From Escherichia coli (GTDB lineage: Bacteria > Pseudomonadota > Gammaproteobacteria > Enterobacterales > Enterobacteriaceae): a stretch of 64,000 nucleotides of DNA. Both the position numbers and the translations under genes were made by a program. Below are positions 35,834 to 62,560 of this stretch, piece by piece. Under the pieces are notes generated by a model. That model did not search any database and was not told where the DNA came from. It was given only the letters and a program-made list of their open reading frames with translations. The stretch lies in NCBI RefSeq assembly GCF_013315695.1, contig NZ_CP054353.1. One strand, 5' to 3'. Position 1 is the stretch's first letter, and each line of letters begins with the position of its first letter.

Positions 35834-37435
35834 ATGACTGAACAGGCAACAACAACCGATGAACTGGCTTTCATAAGGCCGTATGGCGAGCAGGAGAAGC
35901 AAATTCTTACTGCCGAAGCGGTAGAATTTCTGACTGAGCTGGTGACGCATTTTACGCCACAACGCAATAAACTTCTGGCAGCGCGCATTCAGCAGCAGCA
36001 GGATATCGATAACGGAACGTTGCCTGATTTTATTTCGGAAACAGCTTCCATTCGTGATGCTGACTGGAAAATTCGTGGTATTCCCGCGGACTTACAAGAT
36101 CGTCGAGTCGAGATAACTGGCCCGGTTGAGCGCAAGATGGTGATCAACGCGCTCAACGCCAATGTGAAAGTCTTTATGGCCGATTTCGAAGATTCACTGG
36201 CCCCGGACTGGAACAAAGTGATCGACGGGCAAATTAACCTGCGCGATGCGGTTAACGGCACCATCAGCTATACCAATGAAGCAGGCAAAATTTATCAGCT
36301 CAAGCCCAATCCAGCGGTGTTGATTTGTCGGGTTCGCGGTCTGCACTTGCCGGAAAAACATGTCACCTGGCGCGGCGAAGCAATTCCTGGCAGCCTGTTT
36401 GATTTTGCGCTCTATTTCTTCCACAACTACCAGGCTCTGTTAGCAAAAGGCAGCGGTCCCTATTTCTATCTGCCGAAAACCCAGTCCTGGCAGGAAGCGG
36501 CCTGGTGGAGCGAAGTCTTCAGCTATGCAGAAGATCGCTTTAATCTGCCGCGCGGCACCATCAAGGCGACGTTGCTGATTGAAACGCTGCCCGCCGTGTT
36601 CCAGATGGACGAAATCCTTCACGCGCTGCGTGACCATATTGTTGGTCTGAACTGCGGTCGTTGGGATTACATCTTCAGTTATATCAAAACGTTGAAAAAC
36701 TATCCCGATCGCGTCCTGCCAGATAGACAGGCAGTGACGATGGATAAACCCTTCCTGAATGCTTACTCACGCCTGTTGATTAAAACCTGCCATAAACGCG
36801 GCGCATTTGCGATGGGCGGCATGGCGGCGTTTATTCCGAGCAAAGATGAAGAGCGCAATAACCAGGTGCTCAACAAAGTAAAAGCGGATAAATCGCTGGA
36901 AGCCAATAACGGTCACGATGGCACATGGATCGCTCACCCAGGTCTTGCGGATACGGCAATGGCGGTATTCAACGACATTCTCGGCTCCCGTAAAAATCAG
37001 CTTGAAGTGATGCGCGAACAAGACGCGCCGATTACTGCCGATCAGCTGCTGGCACCTTGTGATGGTGAACGCACCGAAGAAGGTATGCGCGCCAACATTC
37101 GCGTGGCTGTGCAGTACATCGAAGCATGGATCTCCGGCAACGGCTGCGTGCCGATTTATGGCCTGATGGAAGATGCGGCGACGGCTGAAATTTCCCGTAC
37201 CTCAATCTGGCAGTGGATCCATCATCAAAAAACGTTGAGCAATGGCAAACCGGTGACCAAAGCCTTGTTCCGCCAGATGCTGGGCGAAGAGATGAAAGTC
37301 ATTGCCAGCGAACTGGGCGAAGAACGTTTCTCCCAGGGGCGTTTTGACGATGCCGCACGTTTGATGGAACAGATCACCACTTCCGATGAGTTAATTGATT
37401 TCCTGACCCTGCCAGGCTACCGCCTGTTAGCGTAA
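35834..37435 (+). CDS. aceB: Malate synthase A
   Basis: 533 aa from ATG 35834 ([33 protein letters not shown]); track ORF starts 6 codons upstream. Confidence 0.96.
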
Positions 37436-53724: not shown

Positions 53725-54672
53725 TTATTTCAGTAATAGTTCAGCTGTGCTGCTATTCGTTACCAGACAATTAATATATTTTCCACGCAGTGCACCAACA
53801 ATTCCGCTGTATTTTTCTTCACTCATGGCAATGCCAATGGAATATCGTGCCTGCTTTAATTTATTCATTTCGATAGAGAGTGTTTTTTCGCTCATATTCG
53901 TTTCAACCATTGCGCCGTGAATATCAAAAAAGCGCGAGCAAATATCGCCAGCAACCTGGCGGGCATTCAGGTCGTCACTCTCTTCACCACCATAAAACGC
54001 ATGCCAGTTAGCGCCGTCGCGAATGGCCGGTGAGCCAATTCCCACCAGGGCGACATCCAGATTATCCCAGTAGGCAGAGATGGTTTTAAAGTGCTGAGAC
54101 TGCATGATCCCATTACGAATTAATGGGTTATCCAGCAGAGCCGGAAAATCCGCGAGATGCGATTCCCCTTTCAACTTCGCTGCCGCGCTGTAGGTTAATG
54201 TGTTTACATGATAGCGGCTTTCGAGTTTACCGGACGGTCCGCCAATAATTGGTACGCAGATTAACTGCCGCGATTGCCCCGCCTGCGGCAAGTTTTCAAC
54301 CAGTGCGCTCACCGCGCGGCCCCAGGAAAAACCAACAATATCGCCAGGTTCCAGCAAGCGATCCAGCAGTTGCGCGCCGTGTAACCCCATCATCGCCAGT
54401 TGAGTCTCTTCATCCTCATCATTTCCCGACACCACCACAACGTCTTTCAGGCCAAACTTTTGCTTCAGTTGCTGCTCCAGCCAGAGATTTTCGTTGTAGT
54501 CATAGTTGATGGCGATGGTGACAATTCCCTGATCGCGGCCTCGTTTAAGCAAGCGGCTGATGGTGGTGCGGTAAATACCCAGTTCGCGCGCGATTTGCGC
54601 CTGCGTCATATCCTGTTCGTAATAGAGTTGGGCAATCTTCACAATCAAACGGATATCGTCACTGTTTTCCAT
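53725..54672 (-). CDS. sorC: SorC-family transcriptional regulator of the sorbose operon
   Basis: 315 aa from ATG(rc) 54670-54672 (MENSDDIRLIVKIAQLYYEQDMTQAQIARELGIYRTTISRLLKRGRDQGIV), N-terminal HTH plus sugar-phosphate binding domain; first gene of the cluster. Confidence 0.8.
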   Translation of the reverse strand: MENSDDIRLIVKIAQLYYEQDMTQAQIARELGIYRTTISRLLKRGRDQGIVTIAINYDYNENLWLEQQLKQKFGLKDVVVVSGNDEDEETQLAMMGLHGAQLLDRLLEPGDIVGFSWGRAVSALVENLPQAGQSRQLICVPIIGGPSGKLESRYHVNTLTYSAAAKLKGESHLADFPALLDNPLIRNGIMQSQHFKTISAYWDNLDVALVGIGSPAIRDGANWHAFYGGEESDDLNARQVAGDICSRFFDIHGAMVETNMSEKTLSIEMNKLKQARYSIGIAMSEEKYSGIVGALRGKYINCLVTNSSTAELLLK

Positions 54673-55019
54673 TGCCGCCTCCTGGTTCTGCACATTTGTG
54701 CAAATACGCTTTCTCACCGCTTGATCTGATATAACCCCATCATGATGGCCTTTCAAAGCGATTTTTCACTCTTTGCATGGGGGGAAATAGCGCTTTCTCT
54801 TGCACATTTGTTTCTCTGCGTAGTAGTCATCAGCACAGGTGTGCAGCGATTCGTAATATGTTGATTATCCTTATTTTGCCAGGCAAATTTGCATCGTACT
54901 TCCGGAGACACTTTTGTGATAAAAGGCGTGGCAGATCACATTTAATTTCGACGTTGCCGCATAACCCTGTTTTTCCCCGCTAAGAGGTACGGTATATTCC
55001 GCGTTTTACAGGAGAATTT

Positions 55020-55892
55020 ATGCTGCCCGACTCATCAGTCCGTTTAAATAAATACATCAGCGAAAGCGGAATTTGCTCACGCCGCGAAGCGGATCGCTAT
55101 ATCGAGCAAGGCAATGTGTTCCTTAATGGCAAGCGAGCCACCATTGGCGATCAGGTGAAACCCGGCGACGTTGTGAAAGTAAACGGTCAGTTGATTGAGC
55201 CTCGGGAAGCCGAAGATTTGGTACTTATCGCCCTGAACAAGCCCGTCGGTATTGTCAGCACCACCGAAGATGGCGAGCGCGATAACATTGTCGATTTCGT
55301 TAACCACAGCAAACGCGTGTTCCCGATTGGCCGCCTGGATAAAGACTCCCAGGGGCTGATTTTCCTCACCAATCACGGCGATCTGGTGAATAAGATCCTC
55401 CGTGCGGGTAACGATCATGAGAAAGAGTATTTGGTGACGGTTGATAAACCGATTACCGATGAATTTATTCGTGGTATGGGGGCGGGAGTGCCGATCCTCG
55501 GGACGGTGACGAAAAAGTGCAAAGTCAAAAAAGAAGCGCCGTTTGTCTTCCGCATTACCCTGGTGCAGGGGCTGAACCGTCAGATCCGTCGCATGTGCGA
55601 GCACTTTGGTTACGAAGTGAAAAAGCTGGAACGTACGCGCATTATGAACGTCAGTTTAAGCGGCATTCCGCTGGGTGAGTGGCGCGATTTAACCGACGAT
55701 GAGTTAATCGACCTCTTTAAGCTCATCGAAAATTCCTCTTCCGAGGCAAAACCTAAAGCGAAGGCCAAACCGAAAACGGTAGGCATCAAACGTCCAGTCG
55801 TCAAGATGGAAAAAACGGCGGAAAAAGGCGGTCGCCCGGCGTCCAACGGTAAGCGTTTTACCTCGCCGGGGCGAAAAAAGAAGGGACGTTAA
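55020..55892 (+). CDS. rluF: 23S rRNA pseudouridine synthase RluF
   Basis: 290 aa; S4 domain N-terminus and pseudouridine synthase motif [21 protein letters not shown]; Lys-rich tail. Confidence 0.94.
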
Positions 55893-56165
55893 TCAGCGCC
55901 TGCCGCGCGTCGACGTATTTGCTGACCAGCTAAATGACGCCTCAGGATCCGGTTTATAAGCCTGCTTTTTCTTCAATTGGCGGGCTTTTTTCGCTTCAGC
56001 CTCACGCTCGACCATTAATTTATCGATGTACTCTTTCTTAATGCTGTTGGTTTCGGAGTTGGTCAGTACGCGACCATGCGCAATCCGCGCCCGATCCAGC
56101 AATGTTTTAAGTTCACGCTGCTCGCGTTCAGTCATCTCTTTTTGGGTAATACGGGGGAGTGCCAT
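55893..56165 (-). CDS. yjbD: DUF3811 family protein YjbD
   Basis: 90 aa MALPRITQKEMTEREQRELKTLLDRARIAHGRVLTNSETNSIKKEYIDKLMVEREAEAKKARQLKKK. Confidence 0.85.
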   Translation of the reverse strand: MALPRITQKEMTEREQRELKTLLDRARIAHGRVLTNSETNSIKKEYIDKLMVEREAEAKKARQLKKKQAYKPDPEASFSWSANTSTRGRR

Positions 56166-56378
56166 GATGGTGCCCTCAGTGAGCCAGAGAGTTCAGTGTA
56201 CGGGAATTCGTTTGCGAGCAGAACTGATAATATTCCTTTGTTCCCTTCTTAAATATCTATCTTTCTTGATAATTGACGATAAATACAGATAAAAATTTAG
56301 CAAAAAGTTTTCCCCCTACAAACAACAGTAATTCATTAACTCTTTATTTTTCATTTGGTTAATGGTTTTTCTCAATTC

Positions 56379-56394
56379 TGGCACGCTTCTCGCA
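56379..56394 (+). promoter_or_regulatory. Putative sigma54 (-24/-12) promoter upstream of the SPFH gene
   Basis: TGGCACGCTTCTCGCA: matches TGGCACG-N4-TTGCW with one mismatch (C for T at -14); GG and GC separated by 10 nt; about 300 nt upstream of the SPFH start. Confidence 0.45.
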
Positions 56395-56693
56395 ATAACA
56401 CTTTTGCGTTGATACTGAATTTCAAAGGGGATTAAACCCCGTCGGCACACCAGGAACGGCCAGGCTGTTTTCCGGGCGTGTTCCGTCAGCCTTTGACGCT
56501 AATTACGGGTTCGATTCCCGAATTCATTCCTGAAATGAATACTGGTTGTAACTTATTAAATAAAAAATGGGGGATTGCGCAGTCAGCGATCCCCGATAAC
56601 GTCGCCGATAAAGACGCCGGGATACAGGCAAAAGGGAATTCCCCTGTCTCTTCGTGTCTGCTTCCGCGACGGCTGTTAAGCAAGGAATAGATA

Positions 56694-57821
56694 ATGATTA
56701 AGAAAATAAGCGTAAGAAAAGATCAGCTGGCATTACTCTCCAGAAATGGCGATTACTACAAAGTGCTGCATGCAGGCGAGCATCTTTTACCCTGGTTAAA
56801 TACGCCAGAAGTCTTGCTGATTACGCTCGATGGCAGCGAAGTTCCCGACGTGCTGGCGGATTATTTGCGCCGCTTTCAGCCTGATTGGGTGGAAAGATAT
56901 TGCGTGGTGGCCGACTTGTCGGAGACTGAAGCCGGGGCGTTGTATATGGACGGTATTTTGCTGGAGATCCTGCCGCCATCAACGCGTCGTTTGTACTGGC
57001 GTGTAGAGGATGATTTGACGCTGGTGCGGATGAATACGCAGCAAGTCCAGGTTCAAACGGAGGTGATGAATGCGGTATTGCAGCCACGGCGCAAAGGGAC
57101 TGTTAAAGGCCGCGATGCGATACTGACGGTGCAGGTTCCGGCCTGGCACGTAGGTGTACTGAAAATCGATGGTGAAACGCAGGCGCTGTTACCGCCGGGG
57201 CTGACTGCGTACTGGAAAATTAACCATCTGGTTGAAGCTGAAGTGGTTGACACCCGCTTGCAGGTACTGGAAGTCAGTGGGCAAGAAATCTTAACGAAAG
57301 ATAAGGTCAATCTGCGGATTAATCTCGCCGCTAACTAGCGCTACAGCGACGTGTTATTGGCATTTAGTCAGTTAACGAAGCCGATTGATCATTTGTATCG
57401 GGAATTGCAATTTGCACTGCGTGAAGCGGTAGGTACGCGTACGCTGGATGAGTTGCTGGAAGATAAACAAGTCATTGATGACGTTGTCAGCGAACAGGTG
57501 AAATCGCGTATGTTGCCATTTGGTATGGAGATTGCTTCATTAGGGGTGAAAGATATCGTCCTGCCTGGCGATATGAAAAATATCCTTGCGCAGCTGGTTG
57601 AGGCGGAGAAATCCGCGCAGGCCAATGTGATTCGTCGACGTGAAGAAACGGCAGCGACGCGTTCGTTACTCAATACCGCTAAAGTCATGGAAAACAACCC
57701 GGTGGCGTTACGCTTAAAAGAACTGGAAACGCTGGAGAGAGTGGCTGAGCGGATCGATAACATCTCTGTATTTGGTGGTCTGGATCAGGTTCTGCACGGG
57801 TTAGTGAATATCAAAGGATGA
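56694..57821 (+). pseudogene. SPFH/band-7 domain protein, interrupted by in-frame TAG at 57339-57341
   Basis: Track ORFs 56694..57338 and 57351..57821 are in the same frame, separated only by the TAG; the joined product (...TKDKVNLRINLAAN*RYSDVLLAFSQ...LLEDKQVIDDVVSEQVKSRMLPFGMEIASLGVKDIVLPGDMKNILAQLVEAEKSAQANVIRRREE) has a stomatin/prohibitin-type SPFH domain spanning the stop. Confidence 0.7.
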
Positions 57822-57933
57822 GTCAAATGCCATTAAATGGAGTCAGTGCTGCGATGCGCGAACGGGTATCGCAGCAGTTAAAAGAAATAGAACGTCGCTA
57901 TGGCGTGAAAGTGCTGTACGCCTGCGAATCAGG

Positions 57934-57945
57934 CAGCCGCGGCTG
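57934..57945. repeat. IS4 target-site duplication, left copy
   Basis: CAGCCGCGGCTG immediately 5' of the IS4 terminus TAATGCC. Confidence 0.85.
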
Positions 57946-59371
57946 TAATGCCAGTCAGTTAAGCAACTGACTGGCTCTTTTTCGGGGCTGTGGGGTATTT
58001 CCAGGGCCTCTCCTTTACCACTCTCGGGAAGGCCCTTTCCCTTCTTGTCGGTAATTTCACAAGTTGTCCCATACTTGCAAGATCGCGCATCAGCTCCGGT
58101 ATACGTCCCGGTGAAGCGCCCTGCAATGTCATCAGCATTCTCATCACCATTCCGCATGATTCTGAGAAACTCAGTTGATTCGGCCAGTAACCTTTCAGAT
58201 GTTCCGCCATTTTAATCATCTGATATCTCACCAGATTATAAGCCAGTAAGACACCCCACAGCTCTTGCTCCACAAGCTCCGGTTTTTTACTTCTCAGCGT
58301 CAGCCTGCTCAGTTGCATCGTCTGTTTTATCTCCCTGTATCCCAGTTCGATTTCCCAGCGATGACTGTACAGATCCGCCATTTCTCCTCCGGGGAAGCGC
58401 ATGGCGTCCGTCATCGACGTCAGCAGATGGCAGACTTTTCCTTTGCGCGTCACGGTCAGCAGGCGGGCTGTCACTTCATTTCCCAGTCCCGGCCACTTTT
58501 TTCGTGCCTGCGGGCTGGTTTTCAGCTTCACCAGATGATCGCCTTTACCCAGTTTTCTGATCTCTTCATATTGCGCTCCCTTTCTGAGAGGTATCATCCA
58601 GTGGCGGTGTTCTCCCGCCAGGCTCCAGGCATTTAACAGTCCCAGTGAGTAATAACCTTTATCCATTAACGTCAGAGTGTTATCGCCGGTTTGTTCTATA
58701 AGTTGCTCAGCAAGCTCATTTTCGCTGTTCTTCATCGTGCCGAAGGCTGCAGCCGTCAGCAGATGGCTGGTCAGTTCCATCTGGCAGACCATTTTGACCT
58801 GCGGGTAGAGCGCCGGGTTCCCGGCATGTGTCTGGCGGGGGAAGGCTGCATCGTTCTCTGGTGTATCCGGTGTGCGCCAGAACACACCATCGATGGCCAG
58901 CAGGGTCAGGCCGCACCAGTGCGGATGCGGCGTGGCGTTATGCCAGAGCTGCGCTGTTTTCGTGAACACGCGGCGGACAGCCTCACTTCCCAGGCGCTGG
59001 CGGGCCTGAATAACGGCACTGGGGGCAACGAAGGGGCGATTGCCCGGCAGCATGATGTCCAGGCGATTCACAATCTGGTGAAGAGGTTCTTTACGCTCAA
59101 GCGCCATGCCAACAATACACCAGACCATCATTTCGAGGGGAAGACGGCGCTTGCGTAGCGTTACAGTACCTGATTCGGCAAGGCAACGAGAGATGAGTTC
59201 GGGGTCGAGGTAATCCCCCAGAGAAGTCAGTGGGTTACGCAGAGAATCGTAACGGGATACCAGATCAAGAGCCTGTCCAATGTGCATAAAAAAATCCGGA
59301 AACAAGTGAGCGTTTCCGGATTCTTACACAGCCACTGGATCGGTCAACTGATCCTTAACTGATCGGCATTA
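57946..59371 (-). mobile_element. IS4 insertion sequence (complete, 1426 bp)
   Basis: Terminal inverted repeats TAATGCCAGTCAGTTAAG... and ...CTTAACTGATCGGCATTA; single 442 aa DDE transposase; flanked by a 12 bp direct repeat. Confidence 0.92.
57959..59287 (-). CDS. insG: IS4 transposase
   Basis: 442 aa [63 protein letters not shown]... (IS4 family DDE transposase). Confidence 0.92.
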
Positions 59372-59383
59372 CAGCCGCGGCTG
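59372..59383. repeat. IS4 target-site duplication, right copy
   Basis: CAGCCGCGGCTG immediately 3' of the IS4 terminus. Confidence 0.85.
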
Positions 59384-60170
59384 GGGATTTGCCTCGCCCG
59401 ATAGCGACTACGATGTACGGTTTTTGTATGTCCATCCGCTGGAATGGTATCTGCGTGTAGAGTCACCGCGCGATGTTATCGAGCTGCCCATCGACGACGA
59501 ATTAGATGTTTCCGGTTGGGAGTGGCGTAAGGCGCTGGGATTATTGAAAGGCGCGAATCCGACGCTGATAGAATGGCTGGATTCTCCGGTGGTCTATCAA
59601 CAAGATGAAGAAACGATAACGGCGCTTAAGGCAATGGTCCCAATGTGGTTTTCTTCGTTGCGTGCACGCTGGCATTACTATTCGATGGCGCAGAAAAACT
59701 TCCGCGGCTATTTGCAGGGCGATGAAGTTCGACTGAAAAAATACTTTTACGTGCTGCGCCCGCTGCTGGCCGTGCGCTGGGTCGAAGCGGGTAAAGGCGT
59801 GCCGCCAATGCGCTTTGCTGAGTTACTGGCAGGAAGCGAGCTTGATGCGCCGTTACGCGAAGAGATTGACGAACTGCTGGAGCGTAAACAGCGAGCGGGG
59901 GAGGCGGAATATGGTCCGCGCCGTCCTTTGTTACATGCGTTTATTCGCGCGGAGCTGGCGCGTGGGGAAATTCCACCGATTTTACCGGACAGTCGAGATG
60001 GAGATGTTCGGGAGCTAGATAATTTGCTGTATCAAACGGTAATGCGCCGGGCATAAAGCCCGGCGTGATTTATTGCTGGTATTGCCAACTGCTGACTAAA
60101 GCGTACAAGTGATTTGGTGATGCTGCCAACTTACTGATTTAGTGTATGATGGTGTTTTTGAGGTGCTCCA

Positions 60171-60446
60171 GTGGCTTCTGTTTCTATCAGCTGTCCCTCC
60201 TGTTCAGCTACTGACGGGGTGGTGCGTAACGGCAAAAGCACCGCCGGACATCAGCGCTATCTCTGCTCTCACTGCCGTAAAACATGGCAACTGCAGTTCA
60301 CTTACACCGCTTCTCAACCCGGTACGCACCAGAAAATCATTGATATGGCCATGAATGGCGTTGGATGCCGGGCAACAGCCCGCATTATGGGCGTTGGCCT
60401 CAACACGATTTTACGTCACTTAAAAAACTCAGGCCGCAGTCGGTAA
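60171..60446 (+). CDS. insA: IS1 InsA
   Basis: 91 aa [43 protein letters not shown]... zinc-finger/HTH protein of IS1. Confidence 0.93.
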
Positions 60447-60868
60447 CCTCGCGCATACAGCCGGGCAGTGACGTCATCGTCTGCGCGGAAATGGACGAAC
60501 AGTGGGGCTATGTCGGGGCTAAATCGCGCCAGCGCTGGCTGTTTTACGCGTATGACAGGCTCCGGAAGACGGTTGTTGCGCACGTATTCGGTGAACGCAC
60601 TATGGCGACGCTGGGGCGTCTTATGAGCCTGCTGTCACCCTTTGACGTGGTGATATGGATGACGGATGGCTGGCCGCTGTATGAATCCCGCCTGAAGGGA
60701 AAGCTGCACGTAATCAGCAAGCGATATACGCAGCGAATTGAGCGGCATAACCTGAATCTGAGGCAGCACCTGGCACGGCTGGGACGGAAGTCGCTGTCGT
60801 TCTCAAAATCGGTGGAGCTGCATGACAAAGTCATCGGGCATTATCTGAACATAAAACACTATCAATAA
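60365..60868 (+). CDS. insB: IS1 InsB reading frame (expressed as InsAB' by -1 frameshift)
   Basis: -1 frame relative to insA; ...[78 protein letters not shown] slippery run in the insA/insB overlap. Confidence 0.9.
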
Positions 60869-60921
60869 GTTGGAGTCATTACCAATAGCGTCGTGGGTCG
60901 CTATTCACCTCTACTGATCGT

Positions 60922-62271
60922 TTACTCAAACAAATTAAAATGCAGCTTCTGCACCACCTGCTCGGCATCTTCGCCGGGCACCAGGAAGCACAGGTTATGG
61001 CTGGATGCGCCGTAACAAATCATGCGAATGTTGAACGGTTCCAGTACGCCGAATACCTCTTTGCCAACGCCGCAGGCTTTTGACAGGTCATTGCCAATCA
61101 ACGCGACCAGCGCCAGCCCCTCTTCCACTTCCACCCGGCACAGTGCGGAAAGCTCCATCAGCAGGGATTGCGTCAGCAAGGTATCGCCAGTGGAGGTTGA
61201 ACCGGTGGTATCAAGGGTTAATGCCACGCTCACTTCTGACGTGGTGATTAAGTCTACCGAAATATTATGCCGCGCGAGGATGCCGAAAACTTCCGCGAGG
61301 AAACCGCGAGAATGCAGCATATTCAGGCTGTGCAAAGTGAGCAGGGTCTGATTGCGACGAAGCGCCAGCGCGCGGAACAGCGGCGGATTTTCAGTTTTAT
61401 TGCACACCAGCGTACCACCTGCGCGTGGGTCTTTGCTGGAGCCGACAAAGACCGGGATATCGCTGCGTACTGCGGGTAGCAACGTTGCCGGATGCAGTAC
61501 TTTTGCACCAAAAGTTGCCATCTCTGCCGCTTCGGCAAACGCGATTTCATCAATGCGTTTTGCTGCGGAAACCACGCGTGGATCGGTGGTGTAGATGCCC
61601 GGGACGTCGGTCCAGATATCAACACGAGATGCGTGTAAAGCCTCCGCCAGCAAGGCTGCCGTATAATCGCTGCCTCCACGGCCAAGCGTCGTTGTACGAC
61701 CTTTATTTTCGCTACCGATAAATCCCTGGGTGATCACTAAGCCTTCATTGAGGCGTGGGAGCAGCTGCAGCGCGGTCAGTTCCGCCAGCGCGGCTACATC
61801 TGGCTCTGCACGACCAAATCGGTCGTTGGTACGCATCACTTTACGTACATCAAACCACTGTGCCTGAACATCGCGTTCGCGCAGGATTTCGACAAACAGC
61901 AGGGTCGACATCAGCTCGCCGTGGCTGACCAGTTCATCTGTCAGGGCCGGAGACGTTGCCAGCGCCGCCGCTTCTGCCAGAACAGTAATATTCTCCAGCA
62001 GACGTTCAATCTCTTCACGGATAACGTTCGGGTAACGCAGACGTTCCAGAATGGCAAACTGGATATTGCGGATTGCGTCGAGTTTTTCGAATCGCTCGCC
62101 AGGTTCCAGTCCTTCAGCTAAAGCGACCAGCAGATTAGTGATACCAGCAGAAGCCGAGAGGACAACTAAACGCACGTTGGCATCAGAAAGCACAATATCA
62201 GCGCTGCGGTTCATGGCGTCAAAATCAGCTACGCTGGTACCGCCAAATTTGGAGACAACAATTTCAGACAT
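60922..62271 (-). CDS. lysC: Lysine-sensitive aspartokinase III
   Basis: 449 aa MSEIVVSKFGGTSVADFDAMNRSADIVLSDANVRLVVLSASAGITNLLVALAEG...; C-terminal ACT domains. Confidence 0.96.
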   Translation of the reverse strand: MSEIVVSKFGGTSVADFDAMNRSADIVLSDANVRLVVLSASAGITNLLVALAEGLEPGERFEKLDAIRNIQFAILERLRYPNVIREEIERLLENITVLAEAAALATSPALTDELVSHGELMSTLLFVEILRERDVQAQWFDVRKVMRTNDRFGRAEPDVAALAELTALQLLPRLNEGLVITQGFIGSENKGRTTTLGRGGSDYTAALLAEALHASRVDIWTDVPGIYTTDPRVVSAAKRIDEIAFAEAAEMATFGAKVLHPATLLPAVRSDIPVFVGSSKDPRAGGTLVCNKTENPPLFRALALRRNQTLLTLHSLNMLHSRGFLAEVFGILARHNISVDLITTSEVSVALTLDTTGSTSTGDTLLTQSLLMELSALCRVEVEEGLALVALIGNDLSKACGVGKEVFGVLEPFNIRMICYGASSHNLCFLVPGEDAEQVVQKLHFNLFE

Positions 62272-62299
62272 AACTACCTCGTGTCAGGGGATCCATTTT

Positions 62300-62560
62300 C
62301 AGCCTTGGCACAAGGGAAGAGCGGAAGACGGGTGGGCGCAGAGCGATACTTCGCTACTATTTTCACCCAGAAGTGCTCCACCACTTGCGAAACGCCCGAC
62401 TGCGAACGCTTCTGGTGACAACCCAGGGGATTCAGCCCCTGTAGCCGATGATGAACGTGGCCAGCCGTTCAATCACCTCGGCGATGCACCCCCTCAGGTG
62501 TTATCACAGGACTGGCTCCTCCAACACCGTTACTTGGGCAACGCGCCTCTTCTGGCCTGC
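62300..62560 (-). promoter_or_regulatory. Lysine riboswitch (L box) in lysC leader
   Basis: Long structured leader upstream of lysC; reverse strand contains ...AGAGGCGCGTTGCCCAAG... and ...GGTGCATCGCCGAGGTGATTGAACGG..., consistent with L-box conserved segments; exact ends not determined. Confidence 0.6.

Follow-up and report, generated by a model that had tools for sequence, protein, structure and literature searches.

An in-frame amber codon in an accessory SPFH/Band-7 gene of Escherichia coli, and the setting of that gene beside RNA-repair functions

The DNA analysed here (the window; 64,000 nucleotides) is a stretch of the Escherichia coli chromosome that spans nusG to pgi; its first position corresponds to position 3842454 of NZ_OZ547117.1 (AF3, a UK blood-culture isolate), and across positions 56400–58000 the two sequences are 100% identical. 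Between yjbD and lysC lies a small islet composed of a sigma-54-type promoter motif, a structured leader, an SPFH/Band-7 gene and the remains of an RlaP gene, the last interrupted by one insertion sequence and followed by another. The SPFH/Band-7 ('slipin') gene occupies 56694–57821 on the forward strand (375 codons with one internal stop, as defined by open reading frames (ORFs), translation, PGAP annotation and the Pfam Band_7 profile). Two ORFs run through it in one frame, 56694–57338 (214 amino acids) and 57351–57821 (156 amino acids), their starts lying 657 nucleotides (3 × 219) apart, and translation of 56694–57824 gives a single 375-codon frame whose sole internal stop reads ...TKDKVNLRINLAAN*RYSDVLLAFSQ.... 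A first-pass annotation of this DNA had reported both the shared frame and an in-frame TAG that splits the gene. Both observations are correct, but the codon had been placed at 57339–57341, which in fact reads CGC; because the ORF end at 57338 already counts the stop codon, the TAG occupies 57336–57338 (forward strand), codon 215 of the frame.

The stop falls inside the SPFH domain, as had also been claimed. The Pfam Band_7 match (PF01145) covers residues 147–318 and scores 92.8 bits in an intact orthologue (cut-off 23.6), and each half of the window's gene retains part of it, the first matching profile positions 2–65 (35.4 bits) and the second positions 86–175 (45.5 bits). In an AlphaFold2 monomer model (mean pLDDT 88), residue 215 sits within a beta-strand (residues 206–217), and the SPFH alpha/beta fold is followed by a long helical region, an arrangement that places the protein in the SPFH/Band-7 superfamily; an NCBIfam search returned matches to HflK and HflC only, all of them below threshold. 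Ahead of the domain is an N-terminal extension, which had been recognised before but put at 130 residues, whereas we find about 146, predicted to form beta-strands. The predicted absence of a transmembrane helix was borne out, in that neither a helix nor a hairpin anchor was found and the highest Kyte–Doolittle 19-residue mean (1.13) lies inside the SPFH domain. The protein thus differs from stomatin/PH1511, HflK/C, QmcA and prohibitin, which are membrane-anchored, in having a beta-rich N terminus of ~146 residues instead of an anchor. It also shows only 12% sequence identity to the major vault protein (shoulder domain plus repeats), a resemblance that we treat as a lead and not as membership.

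Intact alleles (for example, those of strains CUVET16-465 and RM11911) have TGG (Trp) at codon 215, and the stop therefore reflects a G-to-A transition at 57337 (W215*). The first-pass annotation had suggested that orthologues might reveal the ancestral codon and that one point change would restore a protein of roughly 375 amino acids; TGG was one of the four source codons that it had proposed, and the restored frame has 375 codons. Across 88 other orthologous loci, residue 215 is aromatic in 86 (W in 60, Y in 20 and F in 6, with Q and V once each) and the stop occurs in none, the window's sequence alone having one at this position. The gene is accessory (present in 1,630 of 5,426 complete E. 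coli genomes), and the TAG haplotype was found in 5 of the 1,630 carriers: AF3, AF10 and AF14 from the UK, MSB1_4I from Australia and MS 21-1 from the USA. Over 5.8 kb, these five genomes differ from one another by 0–4 substitutions and from the nearest TGG haplotype by 80, which indicates that the mutation arose once, in a single clone.

Of the two explanations first offered for the TAG, a nonsense lesion or a sequencing error, the former stands. An error in sequencing or assembly, with a sense codon as the true state, would fit a single-base difference, the kind of change that errors make, but the same TAG is common to five complete genomes that were sequenced independently from separate isolates in three countries. 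Furthermore, exact copies of the truncated ORF products recur on public contigs from several sources (822 for the 214-residue product and 796 for the 156-residue product), which rules out such an error for practical purposes and leaves it a vanishingly small probability. It is likewise extremely improbable that the SPFH protein is naturally split into two polypeptides encoded by two genuine genes. Older GenBank records do enter the halves as two separate 'SPFH domain-containing protein' genes, and a GTG at 57351 could serve as the start of the second ORF; yet no ribosome-binding site or other Shine–Dalgarno-like sequence is seen by eye before 57351, the break lies within a beta-strand of the modelled fold, each of the 88 other orthologous loci encodes a single protein without interruption, the 375-residue form is found in about 1,625 E. 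coli genomes and the split allele is limited to one clone. The PGAP annotation of all five TAG genomes, too, treats the gene as a pseudogene ('slipin family protein, internal stop'), in agreement with the original judgement that these are not two genes.

The TAG is thus very probably a lineage-specific, inherited W215* nonsense mutation in an accessory SPFH/Band-7 gene, that is, a case of ordinary gene decay. The G-to-A change at 57337 would have converted codon 215 from TGG to TAG in one lineage and then been inherited within a single clone. Translation would stop after 214 residues, and the predicted product would comprise the beta-rich N terminus plus only the opening third of the SPFH domain; missing from it would be the remainder of the fold and the long C-terminal helices, which in other SPFH proteins serve assembly into rings or cages; because of this truncation, loss of function appears likely. 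The lesion is already known in the sense that RefSeq annotates it as a pseudogene, and nothing sets W215* apart from the ordinary nonsense pseudogenes of E. coli accessory genes (PGAP 'internal stop'), which are alike in their single-base stops, clonal distribution, nearby IS insertions and flags in RefSeq.

To place the intact gene, we considered its relatives and their neighbourhoods. A representative-protein library holds 2,231 relatives at E values up to 1e-10, and many of these align over residues 1–374, so that conservation in the family extends to the N-terminal region. One homologue (68% identical) lies in the order RtcR (divergent), Band-7 and RlaP; a second (42% identical) in the order RtcR, Band-7, a small ORF and RtcB; and a third (40% identical) is the gene after RtcB–RtcA. 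A scan of species-representative genomes yielded 80 loci (42–82% identity over residues 1–375), most of which combine a divergent RtcR gene, a tRNA-like gene (about 280–350 nucleotides upstream of Band-7), the Band-7 gene, and RtcB and/or RlaP, sometimes with RtcA. Because the orthologues in other Proteobacteria belong to RNA-repair operons, the conserved N-terminal extension and the missing membrane helix are explained: they are unusual for SPFH proteins generally, as had been remarked from the sequence, but within the RNA-repair-linked subfamily they are the normal, conserved architecture. On the combined evidence of sequence and gene neighbourhood, the intact gene is predicted to encode a cytoplasmic Band-7 component of an RtcR-type RNA-repair module and not a membrane stomatin; membrane SPFH proteins have NfeD or FtsH as partners, whereas here the partners are RNA-repair enzymes. 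A defence-system reading was also considered and was rejected, as PADLOC had no match for the SPFH or RlaP proteins and literature searches for SPFH proteins with RlaP, or with an anti-phage role, returned nothing relevant.

The E. coli gene has yjbD on one side and, on the other, the RlaP gene, which begins 5 nucleotides after the Band-7 stop. RlaP enzymes extend RNA 3'-hydroxyl ends by one or two nucleotides. Neither RtcR nor RtcB had a match in window positions 54001–62500; in E. coli K-12, rtcR–rtcBA is at another locus. The islet between yjbD and lysC is therefore a reduced one, consisting of the sigma-54 promoter motif, the structured leader, Band-7 and RlaP. [quoted passage not shown] PaFlo8 (PA14_60630) of Pseudomonas aeruginosa PA14, an example of such a protein, is encoded inside the rtc locus, and its deletion had no phenotype in the assays used (PMC13086221). 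The E. coli protein resembles the Band-7 component of such RtcR/Band-7/b7a-tRNA modules (40–82% identical over the full length, with the same N-terminal domain plus SPFH), and RlaP immediately downstream, with a sigma-54 motif and a T-arm RNA upstream, extends the likeness. By contrast, RtcR and RtcB are not neighbours of the E. coli islet, the enterobacterial RNA is not a recognisable tRNA (a T-arm match only, a longer anticodon arm and two extra hairpins) and the window's own Band-7 gene is a pseudogene.

Two features of the wider family were observed in passing. In Gilliamella, Snodgrassella, Xenorhabdus and one Providencia (loci L036, L048–L051, L056, L062 and L064), the Band-7 match is longer, at about 510–520 codons, and in several of these it is divided between two tblastn segments, suggesting that the genes carry additional sequence at the N terminus. 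Several beta- and gammaproteobacterial genomes have arrays of 4–12 tRNA genes flanking Band-7 (loci L057, L091, L094, L042, L061, L066, L069 and L093; one ARAGORN call, L094 1372–1457, has a CTA anticodon), and these arrays may represent a spare tRNA set tied to RNA repair.

Upstream of the SPFH gene, the sigma-54-type promoter motif (TGGCACGCTTCTCGCA, with −24 and −12 elements; 56379–56394, forward strand) lies ~300 nucleotides before the start codon and was recognised by pattern search and conservation. The pattern TGGCAC-N5-TYGCW matches twice in the window, against 0.2 matches expected; the second match (36919–36934) lies inside aceB and is probably there by chance. The motif, a candidate promoter close to the consensus, stands at the corresponding position in 11 of 13 Enterobacterales leaders and is conserved at distant loci too. 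The homology of the E. coli sequence to the RtcR-linked loci reaches no further than about 7 nucleotides upstream of the motif, so an upstream activator site was not recognised, and no activator site common to the RtcR-linked loci was found, their homology running from the promoter onward only.

Beyond the motif, comparative folding (RNAalifold) delimits a structured leader RNA with tRNA-like features (56423–56655, forward strand), comprising a D-like hairpin (56426–56440), a long anticodon-like arm (56444–56482), a T-arm (GGGTTCGATTCCC, 56507–56519) and two further hairpins (56605–56620 and 56621–56650). Across 13 Enterobacterales leaders, 36 base pairs are predicted, 24 of them with compensatory changes; single-sequence folding of the leader is no better than that of shuffled sequences (z = −0.97), so that the structure is visible solely by comparative analysis. 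A genuine tRNA or a known RNA family at this position was rejected, as ARAGORN found nothing in the leader region and Rfam nothing credible at E values up to 10. We also built a b7a-tRNA covariance model, R1, from 37 b7a-tRNAs. In non-enterobacterial loci missed by ARAGORN, R1 found full-length copies (seven at 52–68 bits and one at 27 bits), and full-length tRNA-like genes in non-enterobacterial loci were detected by ARAGORN, Rfam or R1. Applied to the window, R1 matched the T-arm alone (56506–56520; 15.1 bits, E = 0.05), and the same T-arm-only match (~15 bits, E about 0.05) was obtained in E. coli and most enterobacterial relatives.

Among the 37 loci used for the model, the D- and T-arms of the b7a-tRNAs are conserved, the 'anticodons' are nearly random and several loops are abnormal; the varying anticodons and abnormal loops suggest that these tRNA-like genes do not decode. 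The E. coli leader is best read as a putative diverged derivative of a b7a-tRNA. A more far-reaching proposal, which we regard as tentative and somewhat doubtful, is that the ~230 nucleotides of 56423–56655 are a new enterobacterial derivative of the b7a-tRNA (T-arm kept, anticodon-like arm greatly extended, two hairpins gained and no Rfam family) within an E. coli orphan module that has become detached from RtcR/RtcB and is possibly under the control of the resident RtcR in trans. If this were true, W151*, W215* and E279* (the first and last being null alleles of other lineages, described below) would be natural knock-outs with which the pairing of Band-7 and a tRNA-like RNA in RNA repair could be tested.

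Downstream, the SPFH stop codon TGA overlaps an ATG (ATGA, 57818–57821) and PGAP places the RlaP start at 57827. With the two genes so tightly coupled, the premature stop could lower RlaP expression where RlaP is intact. The intact orthologue matches Pfam RlaP (PF10127) with an E value of 4e-96. In the window, this nucleotidyltransferase gene is reduced to a 5' fragment (57827–57945, forward strand; a PGAP partial CDS, with the breakpoint set against MS 21-1) and a 3' fragment (59372–60056, forward strand; from PGAP and the MS 21-1 comparison) that starts with a duplicated 12 bp. Between them is an IS4 element of 1,426 bp with a 12-bp target duplication (57946–59371, reverse strand; transposase at 59305–57959), delimited by ORFs, PGAP and comparison with MS 21-1. 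An IS1 element of 768 bp follows (60116–60883, forward strand; PGAP and genome comparison), replacing a phage-tail block or a zeta-toxin gene of related genomes, and then lysC. The IS4-split RlaP gene, with IS1 abutting 60 bp past the RlaP stop, is found in AF3 (this window) and MSB1_4I; AF10, AF14 and MS 21-1 have an intact RlaP gene after the TAG allele and then a phage-tail gene block. Because these three TAG carriers keep both RlaP and the tail block, the TAG predates the IS4 and IS1 events, and the entry of IS4 into RlaP and of IS1 where the tail block stood would represent further decay of the operon in the window's sub-branch.

The W215* allele is not the only null allele of the gene. 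Independent ones occur in other E. coli lineages, namely E279* (GAG to TAG), W151* (TGG to TAG) and a 2-bp deletion of nucleotides 451–452 (loci L100/L101, 1649–2776; L102, 2039–3166; and L103, 2041–3166). All three nonsense alleles seen (W215*, W151* and E279*) are amber codons, probably by coincidence, given how few cases there are. Counted between alleles, differences were 22 at the nucleotide level against 2 plus the stop at the amino-acid level, 43 against 6, and 27 against 3. Because these differences are mostly synonymous, they indicate purifying selection in most of E. coli; the SPFH gene is thus maintained in most of the species and repeatedly lost in some clones. This bears on whether the losses have been adaptive, with inactivation of Band-7 becoming advantageous once the module was separated from RtcR and RtcB, as opposed to neutral decay. 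At least four independent E. coli null alleles, some of them on hundreds of contigs, speak for such an advantage, as does an islet without adjacent RtcR or RtcB and without homology upstream of its promoter, but the mostly synonymous differences between intact alleles and the persistence of the intact gene in about 1,625 genomes argue against it, and we consider adaptive loss unlikely.

We consider it very unlikely that ribosomes read through the amber codon, whether with the help of a suppressor tRNA or in a leaky context, so that some full-length protein is made and the gene remains partly functional. Of the stop codons in E. coli, TAG is the leakiest, which favours this idea, as does the fact that the suppressors excluded cover two classes, supE and supF, besides which serU, leuX, trpT and phage- or plasmid-borne tRNAs could act. 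A check for supE-type suppressors, put forward with the first description of the TAG, was negative: glnX and glnV, the two tRNA-Gln(CUG) genes of one operon in the source genome, each retain the wild-type anticodon, CTG, and supE is therefore not present there. A control query with the supE anticodon had exact matches in 155 genomes (the 40 listed being laboratory or K-12-type strains), and a supF-type tyrT allele had an exact match in none of 5,441 records. The base after the TAG is C, a poor context for amber suppression. Further counting against read-through, RlaP was later lost to IS4 in this branch, and the recurrent inactivation of the Band-7 gene in other E. coli lineages argues that it is dispensable. 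Programmed UAG recoding (for example, with pyrrolysine) found no support, as the stop is conserved in 0 of the 88 other loci and TAG occurs in 5 of the 1,630 complete E. coli carriers. Re-initiation at GTG 57351 or low-level natural read-through would nonetheless be compatible with the sequence as it stands. Ordinary decay of the gene through W215* remains the preferred account.

As a clonal loss-of-function allele of an accessory gene, W215* is itself of little import, and its main practical use is as a caution for annotation, where older records give the halves as separate SPFH genes. Of wider interest is the context, from which the 'slipin family protein' encoded between yjbD and lysC in E. 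coli emerges as a predicted cytoplasmic Band-7 partner of RtcB/RlaP RNA-repair systems. The general outline of an RNA-repair module with Band-7 is already published; the structured leader is not in Rfam. About 30% of complete E. coli genomes carry this reduced and poorly understood module, in a host that is genetically tractable and with several natural knock-out alleles.

Some further observations concern the region beyond RlaP and the source genome as a whole. In some strains, such as A10 (L011 21563–37203), lysC is separated from the RlaP/SPFH pair by a block of ~15.6 kb that is absent from the window, which has IS1 instead. It contains genes for a Mor activator, lysis, tail sheath, tube, baseplate and fibre, without capsid, integrase or replication genes, and resembles an R-type tailocin or what is left of a prophage; the fibre genes of the tail block are pseudogenes in AF10, AF14 and MS 21-1, and other strains have a zeta-toxin gene at the site. 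The adjacent tail genes prompted the idea that the SPFH/RlaP pair might be cargo of a P2-type prophage hotspot, which was rejected, as the pair also occurs without tail genes and the block has no capsid or integrase. Elsewhere, the source genome has a frameshifted pagP pseudogene and another IS1A copy between ybeF and lipB (L010 2142–2703 and 7187–7884), and the source record shows 18 matching places in the BLAST table, mostly IS4 ends, consistent with active IS elements and a number of pseudogenes in this genome.
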